Positions 24,667 to 29,231 of a stretch of 64,000 bases of DNA are shown here, piece by piece; position 1 is the first letter of the stretch; each line of letters starts with the position of its first letter. This stretch comes from Chloroflexota bacterium (GTDB taxonomy: Bacteria; Chloroflexota; Anaerolineae; UBA7937; B3-Chlor). Made by a program: the position numbers and the translations under genes. Below the pieces are notes generated by a model, which had not been told where the DNA came from, did not search any database, and worked only from the letters and a program-made list of their open reading frames with translations. The stretch spans positions 2,028 through 66,027 of the forward strand of contig JAUWLF010000010.1 of assembly GCA_030613785.1 (NCBI GenBank), read 5' to 3'.

Positions 24667-24718
24667 GCAGTTGCCAATGTGAACCCTGCCGATAGACTTG
24701 ACGAAGGAGAGAGGACTT

Positions 24719-25861
24719 ATGAGTAACGATACACGCTACACCGTTATGGGTGGCGGTCACGGAGGCAGAGCGATGGCCGCACACCTGGCCTTGATGGGAT
24801 TTCCTGTCACTCTGTACAACCGCACGCCGCAAAACGTCGCCGCCATCAAGACCCGGGTGGGCATCGAATTGAAGAGCTATGAGGGAGGGCCACACGGCTT
24901 CGGAGAGCTCACATCAGTGACGTCAAACATGGACGAGGCACTGGAACAGGCCGAGATCATCATGATCGTCGTACCGTCCATGGCCCACGCCGACATCGCT
25001 CGGAACGCCGCGCCGCACCTGCGCGACGGGCAGATCGTGGTCCTCAATCCAGGTCGCACCGGCGGGGCCATGGAGTTCACCAAGGTGCTGAGCGACGAGG
25101 AATGTCAGGCTGACGTCATTATCGCAGAAGCTGAGACTTTCATCTACGCCAGTCGTTCCGAGGGACCTGCCGAGTCGCGGATCTTCCGCATGAAAGACGC
25201 GGTACCCTTGGCAGCACTGCCCGCCACACGAACAGAGCGCGTCCTCCAGGCCCTGGAACCGGCCTACCCGCAGTTCATCGATGGCGTAAACGTACTGCAC
25301 ACCGGGCTGAACAATATGGGGGCAGTCTTCCACCCCGCCCTCACCTTGCTCAACGCAGGACGCATCGAATCCACCATGGGCGAGTTCCAATTCTACATTG
25401 ACGGCGTAACGCCAGCTGTCGGTCGAGTGCTGGAAGTGCTGGACCGTGAGCGCGTGACCGTGGCTTCGGCCCTGGGCGTCCGCGCCCGCACTGCGCTGGA
25501 ATGGTTGAAGATGGCCTACGACACCACCGGCGAGAACATTGCAGAAGCGATTCACAACCAGCCTGGATACCGTGGCATCATGGCCCCCCGCACGCTCCGC
25601 CACCGCTACCTCTTCGAAGACGTGCCCATGAGCCTGGTGCCCATGGCTGCCCTCGGGCAGCGCTACGGTGTCTCAGTGCGTGGCATGGATAGCGTCGTCC
25701 GTCTGGCGTGCTTCATCCACCGCACCGACTACTGGCGTCGCGGACGGACCCCCGACAAGCTGGGAATCCAGCAGTGGAGCGTCGGTGAACTGACGCGCTA
25801 CGTCGATGAGGGCGTGGTTCCTCGCGGGACGAGTTGGTCGCCAGCCTGGAAGGTCGCGTGA
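24719..25861 (+). CDS. NAD(P)-dependent octopine/nopaline (opine) dehydrogenase family protein
   Basis: YTVMGGGHGGRAMAAHLALMGFPVTLYNR dinucleotide fold followed by an opine-DH-like C-terminal domain. The ATG at 24719 follows AAGGAGAG. Confidence 0.85.
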   Translation: MSNDTRYTVMGGGHGGRAMAAHLALMGFPVTLYNRTPQNVAAIKTRVGIELKSYEGGPHGFGELTSVTSNMDEALEQAEIIMIVVPSMAHADIARNAAPHLRDGQIVVLNPGRTGGAMEFTKVLSDEECQADVIIAEAETFIYASRSEGPAESRIFRMKDAVPLAALPATRTERVLQALEPAYPQFIDGVNVLHTGLNNMGAVFHPALTLLNAGRIESTMGEFQFYIDGVTPAVGRVLEVLDRERVTVASALGVRARTALEWLKMAYDTTGENIAEAIHNQPGYRGIMAPRTLRHRYLFEDVPMSLVPMAALGQRYGVSVRGMDSVVRLACFIHRTDYWRRGRTPDKLGIQQWSVGELTRYVDEGVVPRGTSWSPAWKVA

Positions 25862-26155
25862 CGGTGCCACAGGCTTGACCCGCTGGAATCTGATCCCTGA
25901 CTGGACACTCCCATCTGTTCTCAATCGGGGCTGCTTCTTTCCTCGATTGACGGTAGGCCCCGTGTGGCATCGGAGAAAGATGGCTCGGGTTTCGCCTCCA
26001 GCCAGGGCTGCGGCCAGCTACACCAGGTTGCGGCCTTGCTTGCGATCTGGCCAGTCACGCCCAAGCATGCCGCCCTTTCGATCCAGACATGAACAACTTA
26101 AAGGAGATGCCCGAATCGCCTTCAGCAGACCTCATACAAGAAACGAGAGGTGAAA

Positions 26156-26923
26156 ATGAAAGCCTTAATAATCGCTGCTGGCCAAGGAAGAAGGCTAAAT
26201 GATCTCACTACCGATCTACCCAAACCACTGATTCAACTCTTGGGTTTGTCCTTGATTGAAAGAGTGATACTAACCGCAAAACGGGCAGGTATTCACGACT
26301 TCGTAATCACAGTCGGCTATCTTGGAGACAAGATAGGAGCAACTCTAGGAGACGGAAGAGGGCTGGGAGTAAGAATAGATTACGTCCAGAACAAAGAATG
26401 GGAGAAGGGAAATGGAGCCTCGGTCCTAAGGGCCACCCCATTGCTGAATGAGAACTTCATCCTATTGATGTCAGACCATATCTTCGATGATCGCATTCTG
26501 AAAGGGCTTGTTGATCATGAATTAGGAAGCTCTGTTGTTTTGGCAGTTGATAGAAGAGCACCGTCGCCGGGGGATACGAAAGTTCTGGAGGCAAGAGGAA
26601 AGATCCTTAGCATAGGCAAAGACATAGAAGAATCAAATTGCATAGATACTGGCATCTTCTTGTGTTCGCCAAGGCTACTTGCGTTTGCCGAGGAAGCGGT
26701 GAAAGAAGGCAAGACTGAACTTGCCGATGTCATTGACAAGGCTGCTGAGAACAGAGATGCCGAAGTGTTTGATATTACTCGAATTGAAAGTTACTCATCA
26801 CGGATGGGAAAAGGGACTACGCCTTGGTGGATAGATATTGATACAAGAGAGGATTTGAGAAAGGCGGAACAGTATTTGATCAAAAAAGAAAACTCATTGA
26901 AAACGCTTTGTCTGCTCCATTGA
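26156..26923 (+). CDS. sugar/alcohol-phosphate nucleotidyl(cytidylyl)transferase (IPCT-like)
   Basis: MKALIIAAGQGRRL...LPKPLIQL is the NTP_transferase signature, and WWIDIDTREDLRKAEQYL is the typical C-terminal motif. GC content is markedly low. Confidence 0.85.
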   Translation: MKALIIAAGQGRRLNDLTTDLPKPLIQLLGLSLIERVILTAKRAGIHDFVITVGYLGDKIGATLGDGRGLGVRIDYVQNKEWEKGNGASVLRATPLLNENFILLMSDHIFDDRILKGLVDHELGSSVVLAVDRRAPSPGDTKVLEARGKILSIGKDIEESNCIDTGIFLCSPRLLAFAEEAVKEGKTELADVIDKAAENRDAEVFDITRIESYSSRMGKGTTPWWIDIDTREDLRKAEQYLIKKENSLKTLCLLH

Positions 26924-26926
26924 AAC

Positions 26927-27595
26927 ATGATCTTCAGGAAGTTTGGAGTAATTGAAGATAGAATAAGAGAAGGTGTTGCAACTCTACTCTTGGAACTTGG
27001 AATACCCATAACTCCAAACCAGATAACGATACTGAGCTTTGTCGTAGGTATCCTGTCCGGTGTGAGTTTTGCCCTATCCCATCTTTTGCTCGGAGGAATC
27101 TTGTACTATCTTTCTGATGTACTTGATGGTGTGGATGGCGTCGTTGCAAGAAGAACAGGTACGGCAACAACATACGGAGCATATCTCGATTCTTGTCTCG
27201 ATAGGTATGTTGATGTATTTGTTGTACTAGGAATATGTGTACATTTTTCTCAGGTTGGATATATCTGGATTATTGGTGTTCTGGCAATAACAGGCAATCT
27301 CATGATCAGCTATGCAACTCATAGAGCAGAGGCGTTAGGCAAGGTAGCCTTAACTTCGCCCATTCGATGGTATAGAAGAAGAAGAATGCATATAGTCGTT
27401 GTTGGGGCATTTCTTAGTTTGTTTTATCCCTCCTCTCTGTTTTATGCACTAGCAACTATGGCGGTTATCAGCAATCTGAAAGTGTTTTGGAGAATGATGC
27501 CATGGATGCTGAAGGATTTCAATTCGCTTGACAAGAACACTAGGAAGCTCCTAGCAAGAACCTCTCTTAGAAGATTTCAGAAGGATGGACCGTAG
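26927..27595 (+). CDS. CDP-alcohol phosphatidyltransferase family membrane protein (DIPPS-like)
   Basis: DVLDGVDGVVARRTGTATTYGAYLDSCLDRYVD matches D(x)2DG(x)2AR(x)8G(x)3D(x)3D. About 6 TM helices. It starts 3 nt after the NTase stop and has low GC. Confidence 0.9.
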   Translation: MIFRKFGVIEDRIREGVATLLLELGIPITPNQITILSFVVGILSGVSFALSHLLLGGILYYLSDVLDGVDGVVARRTGTATTYGAYLDSCLDRYVDVFVVLGICVHFSQVGYIWIIGVLAITGNLMISYATHRAEALGKVALTSPIRWYRRRRMHIVVVGAFLSLFYPSSLFYALATMAVISNLKVFWRMMPWMLKDFNSLDKNTRKLLARTSLRRFQKDGP

Positions 27596-27864
27596 GAATA
27601 TGTGAACAAGAGAACTCGGCCATTCAAAGGGTCTTCGCGAGTCTTGGGATTGCTTGGGCTTATCGACCACGCCCAACAGGGCGCACATGGCTCACTTCGT
27701 TCGCGGATGACGCGGGAAAAGACCGGCGGACACTTAGAGAGAAGCCGGACTGCGCAGAGGAGCTACCCATCACAGCCCGTGCGGCTGAAACCCTACTATA
27801 GCATTCTGGCCTGTGAAGCTATCGTATGCCTTCTGTTGCAGACCGGCCACGGGAGGAACTCAGG

Positions 27865-28638
27865 ATGCAGCTGGGGCAAATGAGCCCTGAGGACCTGATC
27901 CGTCCATCTTGGCTGACGCAGTACGAGAAAGAGATAACAGCCATTTGGTGGAAGCTGGTCCGACTAAGCTCAAACCTGTTCATCCTGAAGAAGATGGACT
28001 GCTTCCCCTTCGATCTGTTCGCACCAATCCCACAACCCTTCTGGATCCTAGTCCGCTACAGTCTGTTTGACACAAGTGCGATGACAATCTGGCAAGTAGC
28101 GTTGGATAGCAGTGCGGACGCCTTGACGCTTTGGAAGCTCCGAAACAGCATTGTGCAAAACCTACGGGAGGAGGAATACCGTTCACGACTCAAAGACGTC
28201 CTACGCAGGATCGACTTCGATGGTACCATATCACATCTTGCACCTCGTATAGCCGACCTAAGGAACAAGATCCTAGCCCACATGGACAGGGATTTGAACC
28301 TAGACGCCACTGCAGAGCAGATCAAGCAGATGCCCGTGCACTTGTCCGACTTGCTGCTCCTGCAAGACAAAGTGAACTCCCTCTTCAGCGCACTATGTTT
28401 CGGGCATCAGAGATCAGTCTACCCCATCCAGTATCACCCAGAGGTTCAACATCCGTCCGGTGTGGACAGCCGCCCGGACATTGACAGATTGCTGGACTGC
28501 GTGGCTAGGGAAAGCGGGCTCCTGAACATGCCTGAGCGACAGCGACAAGTCTGGCCTCATTGGCGCAGCAACCTGTCCCCAGATCAGTTGCACGTACTCA
28601 ACGAATGCCGGGTCAGATTCGGCTTGCCAGAGGTATGA
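27865..28638 (+). CDS. HEPN-domain protein, AbiU2-like (tentative)
   Basis: The ATG at 27865 follows GGGAGGA. The protein is predicted all-helical. ADLRNKILAHMDRD gives an R-x5-H motif in the RNxxxAH context typical of Abi-type HEPN proteins. The coding call is solid; the family call is by eye. Confidence 0.55.
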   Translation: MQLGQMSPEDLIRPSWLTQYEKEITAIWWKLVRLSSNLFILKKMDCFPFDLFAPIPQPFWILVRYSLFDTSAMTIWQVALDSSADALTLWKLRNSIVQNLREEEYRSRLKDVLRRIDFDGTISHLAPRIADLRNKILAHMDRDLNLDATAEQIKQMPVHLSDLLLLQDKVNSLFSALCFGHQRSVYPIQYHPEVQHPSGVDSRPDIDRLLDCVARESGLLNMPERQRQVWPHWRSNLSPDQLHVLNECRVRFGLPEV

Positions 28639-28707
28639 AGTGTAAGCGAGGGCGAGGAAGTGCCACTGTGGGAAGAACCCGCCCAATAGATGGAGCACAT
28701 TGTCGCC

Positions 28708-28725
28708 CCGACGCTGAAGCGTCGG
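28708..28725. terminator. short hairpin between convergent HEPN and peroxiredoxin genes
   Basis: CCGACGC, loop tgaa, GCGTCGG, flanked by a further ATGGAG/CTCCAT pairing. No T tract. Confidence 0.3.
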
Positions 28726-28778
28726 CTCCATACATGCCTGCGCCCGAGCCCTAGCCAAGCCTTCAGGCTCGAGACACC

Positions 28779-29231
28779 TTACAGCGCCGCCAGGGCCCTC
28801 TCCACGCTCTTCTTGGCAGTGACCTTCATCTGAGCATCAGCTATTCGTCCGCCCTCATCGATGATGAAGTGACTCCTGATGATGCCCATGTGGGTTTTGC
28901 CGTACATCTTCTTCTCGCCCCAGACCCCGTACATCTCGGCCACCTCGTGATCCGGGTCCGACAGCAGAGTGAAGGGCAGATCGTTCTTGGCCCTGAACTT
29001 GTGGAGCCTTTCGGCCGGATCCGGGCTTACGCCCACAACCACGGCATTCGCAGCTTCGATCTCTTCGGATCCATCACGGAATCCAACAGCCTGGTCCGTT
29101 CAACCCTTGGTCAGAGCCTTGGGATAGAAGTAGAGGATCACCTTCTTACCCCGGAAGTCCGAGAGCTTTACCGGCTCGCCGGCGTCATTCATCAACTCAA
29201 AGTCAGGCGCTCTCTCCCCAACATCCACCAT
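28779..29231 (-). CDS. bcp: BCP/PrxQ-type peroxiredoxin with in-frame TGA at the peroxidatic Cys position (probable selenocysteine)
   Basis: The ORF track reports only 28779..29042. The same frame extended to the ATG at 29231 (RBS GGGAGGTG) reads MVDVGERAPDFELMNDAGEPVKLSDFRGKKVILYFYPKALTKG[TGA]TDQAVGFRD...VVVGVSPD. That is 150 codons in total, a normal BCP length. The TGA at 29100-29102 aligns with the C of the family motif FYPKxxTxGCT. Confidence 0.7.
29065..29099 (-). promoter_or_regulatory. candidate bacterial SECIS hairpins immediately 3' of the UGA
   Basis: The mRNA after UGA is ACGGACCAGGCUGUUGGAUUCCGUGAUGGAUCCGAA. Hairpin A spans +1..+24 (ACGGA-CCA / UGG-au-UCCGU, loop GGCUGU). Hairpin B spans +14..+35 (UUGGAUUC / GGAUCCGA with two G-U pairs, loop CGUGAU). 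Both were hand-folded only. Confidence 0.4.

Follow-up and report, generated by a model that had tools for sequence, protein, structure and literature searches.

Di-myo-inositol phosphate has traditionally been taken as a sign of life at temperatures above ~55 °C. The described systems closest to the locus considered here are the bifunctional IPCT/DIPPS enzymes of A. fulgidus (4MND; IPCT, 2XME) and of the Thermococcales (NF041135), the PIP and AIP synthases (M. tuberculosis PgsA1, 6H53; R. salmoninarum, 5D92; models NF045883 and NF040950) and the MIPS-IPCT-BEPIS operon of R. marinus. Canonical IPCT/DIPPS genes have also been reported from non-thermophilic microbes of cold sediments, namely deep-sea Thaumarchaeota (PMC8397731) and Atribacteria (bioRxiv 10.1101/536078). 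A six-transmembrane (TM) architecture is associated with soluble acceptors, whereas enzymes known to use lipid acceptors possess another three or four TM helices beyond these six (Clarke et al. 2015, PMC4634129). We focus here on two adjacent low-GC genes in a 64,000-nt stretch of a Chloroflexota genome (the window), which are predicted to encode a cytidylyltransferase and a CDP-alcohol phosphotransferase (Table 1). Our main explanation, to which we assign a probability of roughly one half, is that they form a foreign cassette whose enzyme pair makes CDP-inositol and then DIPP, leading to di-myo-inositol phosphate or a close inositol phosphodiester.

Table 1. Features of the cassette and its insertion site, in window coordinates
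Feature	Position	Strand	Remarks
Native left flank, opine-dehydrogenase-like gene	24698..25861	+	Orthologues 81-86% identical in 12/20 relatives searched
Foreign low-GC cassette: leader, ribosome-binding site, two coding regions	26105..27600	+	Limits from composition and homology span of copies
Shine-Dalgarno-like GAGAGGTGA	26143..26151	+	5 nt upstream of ATG 26156; kept in L057 (sequence and alignment)
Gene 1, predicted IPCT-type cytidylyltransferase, 255 aa from ATG 26156	26156..26923	+	Alternative GTG start at 26150 (ORF list)
In-frame TGA dividing the ORFs	26921..26923	+	The 481-aa fused homologue P0174/L075 has CGA (Arg) here (codon comparison)
Gene 2 (222 aa), predicted CDP-alcohol phosphotransferase with six TM helices, from the small A1 clade	26927..27595	+	Pfam CDP-OH_P_transf, 53 bits
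Gene 2 catalytic signature, D67xxD70G71xxA74R75x8G84xxxD88xxxD92	27125..27202	+	Regular-expression match at residue 67
HEPN/AbiU2-like ORF filling the remainder of the variable site	27826..28638	+	Specific to the host genome (G000); native GC3, 0.66
Native right flank, BCP-type peroxiredoxin gene	28779..29231	-	In-frame stop interrupts the ORF; conserved beside the variable site in relatives

The composition of the cassette sets it apart from the genome in which it resides. GC is 0.434 at positions 26150-27595, compared with 0.588 for the genome (sd 0.022 in 1450-nt windows; z = -7.07), the lowest value among 16,187 windows of the 4.29-Mb genome. At third codon positions (GC3), it is 0.43 in gene 1 (z = -3.9) and 0.37 in gene 2 (z = -4.8), relative to a mean of 0.69 +/- 0.066 for the genome's long ORFs. 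An origin of the low GC in amino-acid composition is ruled out, the third position being the lowest of the codon positions in gene 2 and GC3 lying far under the genome mean in both genes. The intergenic DNA on the two sides has native GC (0.58 and 0.56) and the change-points are at ~26080-26120 and 27590-27640, and thus the dip coincides with the two genes. A sequence-only reading of this DNA had described just such an abrupt drop, matching exactly two genes 3 nt apart, from 60-nt counts that we reproduce exactly (28/60 at 26161-26220 and 23/60 at 26941-27000, against 41/60 at 25801-25860); in the windowed calculation that it had named as a check, the dip is highly significant.

At least three further genomes of high GC that seem to be related carry copies of the cassette at 81-91% nucleotide identity, and the copies at L057, L039 and L075/L076 are low-GC islands too, within flanks of 0.58-0.66 GC. 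The copies at L057, L039 and L075 align to window positions 26113/26119 to 27586-27590, and outside this span their DNA is unalignable or much less similar. Between the host and L075, dS is 0.22 for the cassette and 0.68-1.13 for flanking orthologues, the cassette being the less diverged. The insertion site belongs to a gene row conserved in the family, DUF362-B12 fusion, OcDH, a variable site, Bcp, DUF1232 and MerR, in which the variable site of relatives holds other native-GC genes or, in G011, only 45 bp (an empty site). The HEPN-like ORF was considered as a member of the island and rejected on its GC3. No integrase, transposase or other mobility gene is present at the cassette site and no tRNA gene within the window, while direct and inverted repeats around the cassette are at chance level only and the promoter and terminator search at the cassette returned none exceeding shuffled controls.

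None of 40 relatives, 15 of them from the same family, has a close homologue of the cassette, and the best match among them (39%) is of the native PIPS type. Substitutions on the host branch comprise 103 AT>GC and 19 GC>AT, an excess that indicates drift of the cassette towards host composition. From its composition, its absence in relatives, the empty syntenic site and this amelioration, we conclude that the cassette was horizontally acquired, as the sequence-only reading had proposed; nesting in a vertically inherited lineage clade, the outcome it had set against acquisition, is seen for neither gene. The nearest complete MIPS-IPCT-transferase operons lie on archaeal-looking contigs, the named carriers are mostly archaea (Hydrothermarchaeota, Methanofastidiosia and Aenigmatarchaeota), and cassette identity between archaea and bacteria is 65-77%. 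In the mechanism that we propose, the 1.5-kb cassette of a low-GC donor would have inserted between the opine-dehydrogenase-like and peroxiredoxin genes of an Anaerolineae-type bacterium.

Gene 1 matches Pfam NTP_transferase (PF00483; 64 bits, residues 4-243) and carries GQGRRL and PKPL, in line with its earlier description as an NTP-transferase with the GxGxRL...PKPL signature, and it is IPCT-like. The NCBIfam IPCT/DIPPS model NF041135 matches it at 116.6 bits with its N-terminal half (residues 3-246); because this model is built for fused Thermococcales proteins, a split gene 1 is unable to reach the cut-off of 580 bits. The A. fulgidus IPCT structures 2XME and 4MND match over the full length at 83-84 bits (2XME, 84 bits over residues 3-241), and gene 1 shares with 2XME the motifs EKGNG, M(S/G)DH, IGKD..E..C(I/V)DTG(I/F)F and W(I/M)D(I/V)DT. 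MurU scores slightly higher than IPCT in the PDB (91 bits), but over residues 3-198 only. Furthermore, gene 1 is 65-70% identical to the N-terminal domains of fusions with end-to-end NF041135 matches. Gene 1 should be an IPCT-type cytidylyltransferase, predicted to convert CTP and inositol-1-phosphate into CDP-inositol.

Gene 2 is, as judged by motifs and family matches, a CDP-alcohol phosphotransferase of the inositol-phosphate subgroup. It keeps 43 of 43 family-invariant columns, and its AlphaFold2 model (pLDDT 89.9) has a juxtamembrane helix and six TM helices, which, together with the motif match, confirms the six-TM protein with a perfect D(x)2DG(x)2AR(x)8G(x)3D(x)3D signature that had been noted from the sequence. 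Its top NCBIfam match is AIPS, at 118 bits against a cut-off of 180, with PIPS at 76 against 170 and the DIPPS half at 106, again under the cut-off. A Foldseek structure search, tried as a way to separate DIPPS from PIPS, was not discriminating, AF2299, the M. tuberculosis PIP synthase (MtPIPS) and A. fulgidus DIPPS being equal (TMq 0.67-0.71). In the tree, gene 2 falls in a clade of its own, A1, with support of 100/100 and a long stem (1.23 substitutions per site); the best tree joins A1 weakly to PIPS/AIPS (31/0), and a topology in which it is sister to DIPPS is not rejected (p-AU 0.50) but gains no support. A profile search of 1.84 billion representatives places five clusters in the clade at 241-393 bits, the next match being at 142 bits, and the C-domains of fused IPCT/DIPPS-type proteins are just 29-40% identical to gene 2. 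By these sequence comparisons, gene 2 is neither a canonical DIPPS nor a canonical PIPS/AIPS. The earlier description of the pair as a split IPCT/DIPPS thus survives in part: gene 1 is IPCT-like and fused pairs exist elsewhere, but gene 2, with its own clade and low identity, does not correspond to the DIPPS domain found in the known fusion enzyme.

The residues likely to handle the substrates can be compared with those of better-studied relatives. S128, R153 and R189 of gene 2 align with the inositol-phosphate-binding S132, R155 and R195 of MtPIPS; across A1, S128 and R153 do not vary, and 20 of 21 members have Arg or Lys at position 189. In sequence alignment, the invariant R151 of A1 appears opposite P153 of MtPIPS, which contacts the acyl chain, and A. 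fulgidus DIPPS has Asp there. The residue following the second DG is Val or Ile in A1 (DGV/DGI), as in PIPS/AIPS, and acidic (DGE/DGD) in A. fulgidus DIPPS, AF2299 and L006/L007/L009/L012; the acidic residue is an empirical trait of the DIPPS-clade sequences examined and no published criterion. A1 also has a conserved basic amphipathic C-terminal tail (MPWMLKDFNS...TSLRKFQ). The six TM helices, the conserved Arg pair and Ser, R151 in place of Pro, and the canonical PIPS or AIPS that is already present argue for soluble substrates.

Both ORFs lie in a common frame, with only TGA-AAC between them. P0174, the homologue encoded at L075, is a gap-free fusion that is 89% identical to the read-through translation of both host ORFs. 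An NTP-transferase gene is adjacent, fused or present as a remnant in ~10 of 12 contexts, and a cytidylyltransferase adjoins the A1 gene in L031, L032, L034, L035, L036-38, L039 and L057. A1-linked cytidylyltransferases are diverse (40-79% identity). Neighbouring positions in most contexts, and a genuine fusion in a close relative, point to two activities that are physically and genetically coupled. Selenocysteine insertion or read-through at the TGA was considered and rejected: there is no SECIS-like fold downstream, the RNA folds worse than its shuffles (z = +1.39) and the same sequence follows CGA in L075. An ATG begins 3 nt past the TGA, and more distant homologues are naturally split, overlapping genes; by analogy with these, each half is probably translated on its own, ribosomes re-initiating at this ATG, although gene 2 may be expressed less, or not at all, because of the TGA. 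The cassette is under purifying selection, with dN/dS of 0.19-0.31 and synonymous changes in excess (p = 1.3e-10).

An inositol-1-phosphate synthase had been reported as lacking beside the pair, and the window indeed contains no MIPS gene; the genome's sole ino1 is on contig C103, within a PI/PIM-like cluster that also holds a canonical PIPS (NF045883/NF040950 scores of 123 and 171 bits). In the cassette relatives L036-L038 and L031, MIPS lies directly upstream as the first gene of the operon, and it is the sole other biosynthetic gene in the cassette-type operons seen. Given the host ino1 on C103 and the MIPS genes in relatives' operons, the absence of ino1 at the locus is no obstacle. The host genome also contains two IMPase-family genes, and the archaeal cassette carriers, like the host, already encode canonical PIPS or AIPS. 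We infer the substrates and product of the pair to be as follows. The host inositol-phosphate synthase would provide L-myo-inositol-1-phosphate, which the cytosolic product of gene 1 would combine with CTP to give CDP-inositol. Having bound this CDP-alcohol at its D-x2-DG-x2-AR...G-x3-D-x3-D/Mg2+ site, gene 2 would donate the phospho-alcohol to an acceptor that is soluble and phosphorylated and is positioned by S128, R153 and R189. The acceptor would most likely be a second inositol-1-phosphate, yielding DIPP, which would then be dephosphorylated by an IMPase-family phosphatase, with the anionic compatible solute di-myo-inositol phosphate or a close inositol phosphodiester as the end product.

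Other A1 contexts bear on what gene 2 does. At L053, an A1 gene has a canonical fused IPCT/DIPPS immediately upstream, an arrangement which argues that the function of A1 differs from DIPP synthesis. The Hydrothermarchaeales genome G042 encodes a fused IPCT-CDP-AP protein in addition to an A1 operon; as an argument this second co-occurrence is weakened, since this fusion belongs to the divergent P0079 type, whose motif is altered, and only L053 is clean. At L030, an A1 gene without an adjacent cytidylyltransferase is followed by a gene of the PAP2 lipid-phosphatase type. The contexts of L053 and L030 and the Val/Ile after DG count against the di-myo-inositol phosphate explanation, as do the position of gene 2 outside the DIPPS clade, to which the characterised A. 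fulgidus enzyme belongs, the similar scores, both under cut-off, that it receives from the AIPS and DIPPS models, the TGA with its possible effect on gene 2 expression, and the negative promoter and terminator search.

Gene 2 could instead serve an extra inositol-phospholipid route as a head-group enzyme, either (a) as a variant PIP/AIP synthase that joins CDP-diacylglycerol or CDP-archaeol with inositol-1-phosphate, or (b) as a BEPIS- or Kennedy-type enzyme that transfers phosphoinositol from CDP-inositol to diacyl- or dialkyl-glycerol. The rank of AIPS as the top NCBIfam match, the PIPS/AIPS-like residue after DG, the weak grouping in the best tree and the arrangement at L030 all lean this way, and the MIPS-IPCT-transferase layout resembles that described for the R. 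marinus BEPIS pathway (PMC4587543) and for an unconfirmed B. vulgatus cluster (PMC9246714); on the model, the basic tail could rest on the membrane surface. We nevertheless consider a lipid product rather unlikely, as the scores fall under both the AIPS and PIPS cut-offs, an invariant Arg occupies the acyl-contacting Pro position, the additional helices of known lipid-acceptor enzymes are missing, the cassette is common to archaea and bacteria despite their different core lipids, and host and carriers already possess a canonical PIPS/AIPS; version (a), furthermore, would have no need of tight fusion or adjacency to IPCT. Another candidate product is a different soluble inositol phosphodiester, such as glycero-phospho-inositol or an isomer or derivative of di-myo-inositol phosphate, made from CDP-inositol or CDP-glycerol with an acceptor unlike that of canonical DIPPS. 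The separate, long-stemmed clade, the neighbouring canonical fusion at L053, the retention of phosphate-binding residues alongside donor-side residues unlike those of the DIPPS clade, and the diversity of the linked cytidylyltransferases are consistent with such a product. It seems improbable given the high identity of gene 1 to the IPCT domains of DIPPS-type fusions, the lack of any biosynthetic partner other than MIPS in the operons seen and of any linked glycerol-phosphate-related gene, and paralogue redundancy could account for L053.

The cassette might also be a decaying passenger, a once-functional fused gene in which the TGA is a recent inactivating mutation and whose parts are now unused in this genome. 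The CGA of the 89%-identical relative at the position of the TGA would fit this, as would a promoter-like site not having been found, and constraint on the gene 2 half is marginal in single changes relative to L075 (11 synonymous, 17 non-synonymous, p = 0.045). We hold decay to be very improbable, since both ORFs are otherwise intact with all family-invariant residues kept, derived changes are not in excess in the host relative to L075 (5 vs 7 in gene 2; 8 vs 4 in gene 1), and the ATG 3 nt after the stop recalls the more distant homologues that function as two separate overlapping genes. The synthesis of di-myo-inositol phosphate or a close phosphodiester by a foreign pair thus remains the explanation that we favour. 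Beyond it, we put forward tentatively, as possible though somewhat doubtful, that A1 is a third functional class beside DIPPS and PIPS/AIPS, which together with IPCT would make an undescribed inositol phosphodiester (solute or head group), and that a 1.5-kb cassette of archaeal origin is spreading among sediment Anaerolineae, with ongoing fusion and fission showing as the CGA/TGA difference.

No major concept is changed by this locus, mobile IPCT/DIPPS-like genes outside thermophiles being an already known theme. What the cassette offers is a compositionally dated case of the entry and circulation of such genes among mesophile-looking Anaerolineae, with an identifiable donor-type operon. A1, furthermore, is a sharply bounded clade of IPCT partners and a target for learning which inositol phosphodiesters sediment microbes make, and the natural split and fused pair, one nucleotide apart, is useful for asking whether fusion matters to the channelling of CDP-inositol.

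Compared with the bifunctional IPCT/DIPPS enzymes, the cassette has the same combination of an NTP-transferase-fold IPCT and a six-TM CDP-alcohol phosphotransferase, and a fused version exists in its close relative (P0174). Residues 10-191 of gene 2 align with the A. fulgidus DIPPS domain with a fold TM-score of 0.70; gene 2, on the other hand, is only ~28-30% identical to it, lies outside its clade, lacks the acidic residue after DG and has a conserved basic C-terminal tail that is not seen there, and the host appears to be a sediment Anaerolineae, no demonstrated thermophile. With the PIP/AIP synthases, gene 2 shares the six-TM fold (TM-score 0.67-0.71), the catalytic signature and the Ser and Arg that bind the phosphate of inositol-1-phosphate, but it differs in scoring under their cut-offs, in its separate clade, in the Arg that replaces the acyl-contact Pro and in its coupling to a cytidylyltransferase. 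The R. marinus MIPS-IPCT-BEPIS operon (Jorge, Borges and Santos 2015, as cited in PMC4587543 and PMC9246714) follows the operon logic of L036 and L031, and the unconfirmed 'alternative' inositol-lipid cluster of Bacteroides vulgatus (PMC9246714) combines MIPS, IPCT and a CDP-alcohol transferase as the cassette relatives do. Unlike these two clusters, the present locus carries no HAD hydrolase or other lipid gene, and gene 2 differs from the BEPIS system in its six-TM soluble-acceptor architecture and phosphate-binding arginines. Finally, the IPCT/DIPPS genes of sediment Thaumarchaeota and Atribacteria likewise occur outside thermophiles, and some cassette relatives are labelled 'marine sediment metagenome'; those genes are canonical and fused, whereas here a split, recently fused pair with a transferase of another clade sits in a compositionally foreign island.

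Base composition sets the two genes of the cassette sharply apart from their surroundings. In the composition profile of the window, GC drops from ~0.60–0.65 to 0.39–0.47 at roughly 26100–27620 and then recovers, with all 1-kb bins outside the island at 0.537 or above. Taking the whole 4.29-Mb assembly as reference (184 contigs, 94.99% complete, 6.63% contamination), the 1446 nt from 26150 to 27595 have a GC of 0.434 against 0.588 for the genome, a deviation of z = −7.07 (sd = 0.022 for genome windows of this size), and none of the 16,187 genome-wide windows is equally low. This confirms the abrupt low-GC island proposed in the sequence-only reading, whose three 60-nt GC counts are reproduced exactly and which was also exactly right on the 3-nt gap between the genes and on both protein motifs. 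GC3 is 0.43 in gene 1 and 0.37 in gene 2, against a mean of 0.69 ± 0.066 for the long ORFs of the genome (n = 2,293), and the spacers on either side of the pair are at native GC (0.58 and 0.56).

No close homologue of the cassette was found in 40 relatives, of which 15 share the host's family, 11 its order and 14 its class; the best match there, at 39%, is of the native PIPS type, and a few genomes of the host class carry unrelated canonical DIPPS-type genes, fused or stand-alone. The row that flanks the cassette runs DUF362, a B12-domain fusion, an opine-dehydrogenase-like gene, a variable slot, Bcp, DUF1232, MerR and an ORF; five genomes of the same family conserve it, with 49–85% identity between the flanking genes (81–84% for the opine-dehydrogenase-like gene). 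An orthologue from a same-family genome clusters with a protein labelled Anaerolineae bacterium, so that the host is probably a member of this class of Chloroflexota. In other genomes of the family the slot is filled differently: some genera have native-GC genes there, for a 262-aa protein and a Tag-like 3-methyladenine glycosylase, the relative G010 has a shorter gap, and in G011 the slot is empty, with just 45 bp. At the place of the HEPN/AbiU2-like ORF that lies next to the cassette in the host, the related contig L039 has a different gene of 154 aa. A search for tRNA genes, flanking repeats and mobility genes at the cassette found none.

Coordinates of the cassette, its insertion site and related loci (positions without a locus name are those of the window)
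Feature	Position	Remarks
Gene 1	26156–26923	likely start ATG 26156, GAGAGGTGA ahead of ATG
Gene 2	26927–27595	CDP-alcohol phosphotransferase
Variable slot, opine-dehydrogenase-like gene to bcp	25862–28778; loci L025–L029	family hotspot
HEPN/AbiU2-like ORF next to cassette	27826–28638	absent elsewhere in family; native GC3 (0.66), hence outside the low-GC DNA
Remnants just upstream of cassette copies	L057:1–860; L075:6875–7710	
Restriction-enzyme-like protein beside cassette copy	L039:2157–3161	
Native PI/PIM-type cluster	host contig C103, L004:3062–11339	PHP-family phosphatase is candidate PIP phosphatase
Canonical fused IPCT/DIPPS and A1 gene	L053:6508–8912	
A1 gene without adjacent cytidylyltransferase, then PAP2-family phosphatase gene	L030:1873–3318	MAG labelled Planctomycetia, GC 0.35, 1.1 Mb

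The product of gene 1 has the NTP-transferase fold. Among curated models it fits best the N-half of the one for Thermococcales IPCT/DIPPS (116.6 bits, residues 3–246). The A. fulgidus IPCT structures 2XME/4MND align with it over its full length and have motifs in common with it, and the N-terminal domains of many fused 430–450-aa proteins are 65–70% identical to it; the IPCT/DIPPS model covers these proteins from end to end, at 280–311 bits. The C-domains of these fused proteins, on the other hand, are just 29–40% identical to gene 2, and the two genes therefore have different histories. Two models score gene 2 about equally, that of archaetidylinositol-phosphate synthase at 118 bits and the DIPPS half of the bifunctional one at 106 bits, and neither value reaches the respective cut-off. 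An AlphaFold2 model built with 21 homologues predicts with high confidence (pLDDT 89.9, pTM 0.84) six TM helices together with a juxtamembrane helix and, at the C-terminus, two short ones; Foldseek matches it equally well to AF2299, the PIPS of M. tuberculosis and M. kansasii and A. fulgidus DIPPS, all at TMq 0.67–0.71, and clearly less well to PgsA (0.49), PSS (0.43) and choline phosphotransferase (0.55).

Of 35 proteins matched to gene 2 in a word-based search of 5.8 billion, 26 form a tight family, A1 (41–77% identity). Its hallmarks are a basic C-terminal tail and 43 invariant residues, and gene 2 retains every one of the latter. Against 1.84 billion 50%-identity representatives, the A1 profile finds five clusters at 241–393 bits, the next scoring 142 bits. 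In a maximum-likelihood tree of 58 sequences, three groups separate: PIPS/AIPS, where the host's native paralogue falls together with the two PIPS of known crystal structure; DIPPS, with A. fulgidus DIPPS, AF2299, the fused C-domains and genes, fused or stand-alone, from the host's own class; and A1, supported at 100/100, whose stem measures 1.23 substitutions per site. The best tree joins A1 to PIPS/AIPS with weak support, and joining it to DIPPS comes at no likelihood cost (p-AU 0.50). Our search of the accessible literature found no report of this clade. The earlier proposal of a horizontally acquired IPCT and CDP-alcohol transferase for a polar phosphodiester is right in outline and calls for refinement on one important point: judged by its sequence, gene 2 is no canonical DIPPS and is instead a member of a small, sharply delimited and uncharacterised clade.

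Named carriers of A1 are archaea (two Hydrothermarchaeota, one each of Methanofastidiosia and Aenigmatarchaeota, and one unclassified) and a single MAG with the label Planctomycetia; three of the A1-bearing archaea also have a separate AIPS-like gene. An NTP-transferase gene adjoins A1 in most contexts. On the metagenome contigs L036–L038 (73% and 70% identity), the inositol-phosphate synthase gene (MIPS), the NTP-transferase gene and A1 form an operon with 4-nt overlaps, followed by a small membrane-protein gene, among neighbour families that we take to be archaeal (DUF447, CitG, Sua5), and the order MIPS, NTP-transferase, A1 recurs in a Hydrothermarchaeales MAG. In the Methanofastidiosia MAG the NTP-transferase is reduced to a remnant (L033). 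On L053 its first 50 codons are left, fused to A1, directly downstream of a canonical fused IPCT/DIPPS; since the A1 ORF opens with these 50 codons, the remainder of the IPCT gene from which they come has been deleted. Neither MIPS nor IPCT was found in the L030 assembly, which is small and probably incomplete. The long-branch fused IPCT-CDP-AP proteins P0079, P0091, P0116 and P0120 (L060, G042:C10), from a Hydrothermarchaeales MAG and, by source label, a Marinimicrobia MAG, have IPCT domains 59–67% identical to gene 1 and an altered signature (DGxxSR, last two Asp positions shifted); this group may have a different activity, possibly of the BEPIS type.

Closer copies of the cassette occur on L057 and L039 (81–82% DNA identity) and L075/L076 (91%), and these too are low-GC islands, at 0.39–0.43 in flanks of 0.58–0.66. 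The genes flanking the copies on L075 and L039 have orthologues in the host genome at 63–86% protein identity; these contigs come from apparently related bacteria. Between the host genome and L075, dS is 0.22 for the cassette against 0.68–1.13 for four flanking orthologues; the cassette therefore postdates the divergence of the genomes and so has spread laterally among them. With base changes polarised against L057 and L036, AT>GC changes exceed GC>AT changes by 103 to 19 on the host branch and by 86 to 21 on the L075 branch, an excess that is amelioration towards the host. Of the gene in third place in the L036-type operon, L057 retains ~80 nt, a remnant that points to the donor layout. L057 and L075 also carry truncated remnants of the B12-fusion gene and the 3′ end of the opine-dehydrogenase gene, 71–77% identical in DNA, which suggests that flanking DNA was transferred along with the cassette or that an ancestral locus common to these genomes has decayed. 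The L039 protein with a restriction-enzyme-like N-terminal domain has three copies in the host genome (83–86% identical, on contigs C119, C122 and C163), which makes it a possible restriction-modification gene of a multicopy or mobile kind.

Pairwise dN/dS of the cassette against the nearer copies is 0.19–0.31, compared with 0.08–0.11 for the flanking opine-dehydrogenase gene; the synonymous excess relative to L075 is significant overall (p = 1.3e-10) and marginal for gene 2 alone (p = 0.045), and derived amino-acid changes are evenly spread over the host and L075, at 5 versus 7 in gene 2 and 8 versus 4 in gene 1. The two ORFs share one frame in the host, and on L075 and L076 they are represented by a single 481-aa protein, P0174, with 89% gap-free identity to the host read-through translation. 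The host TGA at 26921–26923 is CGA on L075, and the ATG of gene 2 is the Met two codons past it in both. In the more distant L057, L039 and L036 there are two overlapping genes in different frames, which a 1-nt deletion common to the host and L075 merged. The likely order is thus split, fused and then re-split by a C>T change in the host, the reverse order of the last step being possible. No SECIS-like structure was found after the TGA.

What the pair makes can be approached through the residues of gene 2. The PIPS of M. tuberculosis holds the inositol-1-phosphate phosphate group through S132, R155 and R195, with P153 stacking against one acyl chain of CDP-DAG (Clarke et al. 2015, PMC4634129). 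In HMMER alignments these phosphate-binding residues correspond to S128, R153 and R189 of gene 2, the first two invariant in A1 and position 189 Arg or Lys in all members but one, and the acyl-contact proline corresponds to the invariant R151, a position that is Asp in A. fulgidus DIPPS and Pro, Ala, Leu or Lys in PIPS/AIPS. This pattern speaks for an acceptor that is soluble and phosphorylated and for a polar donor. Family members with six TM helices are described as using soluble acceptors, with extra helices in lipid-acceptor enzymes (PMC4634129). After the second DG, gene 2 has Val/Ile as in PIPS/AIPS, where the DIPPS-clade sequences inspected have Glu/Asp, which counts against a simple DIPPS assignment. 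Overall, we consider it most likely, at about even odds (0.5), that CDP-inositol would be formed first and its phospho-inositol then transferred to inositol-1-phosphate, giving di-myo-inositol phosphate (DIP) or a close relative. A role in making a lipid head group and a different soluble product are both live alternatives.

The 64-kb window contains no MIPS gene. Besides gene 2, the host genome has just one other CDP-alcohol transferase, on contig C103, in the row ThrRS, PIPS, GT4 (PimA-like), PHP phosphatase, two PIM-type acyltransferases and inositol-3-phosphate synthase; this is a vertically inherited PI/PIM-type cluster, which would provide the inositol phosphate. Two IMPase-family genes are also present in the genome. 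The C103 cluster in itself suggests phosphatidylinositol mannoside-like lipids in this Anaerolineae lineage.

Among known systems, the DIPPS domain studied by Rodrigues et al. reportedly accepts L-myo-inositol-1-phosphate only and uses CDP-glycerol as well as CDP-inositol as donor, and the same authors are said to have described IPCT and DIPPS as separate genes in Thermotoga and some Crenarchaeota. As far as PMC8397731 summarises the work of Rodrigues 2007 and Goncalves 2012, IPCT/DIPPS yields di-myo-inositol phosphate in (hyper)thermophiles, and its genes have moved between archaea and bacteria. For canonical fused genes there are furthermore reports from deep-sediment Thaumarchaeota that are not thermophilic (PMC8397731) and from Atribacteria (bioRxiv 10.1101/536078). 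In Rhodothermus marinus, according to the account of Jorge 2015 in PMC4587543, CDP-inositol is the head-group donor for ether inositol lipids via a MIPS-IPCT-BEPIS operon, BEPIS being the CDP-inositol:lipid transferase, and in Bacteroides/Prevotella an untested cluster of NTP-transferase, CDP-alcohol transferase and HAD genes has been proposed to serve inositol lipids (PMC9246714).
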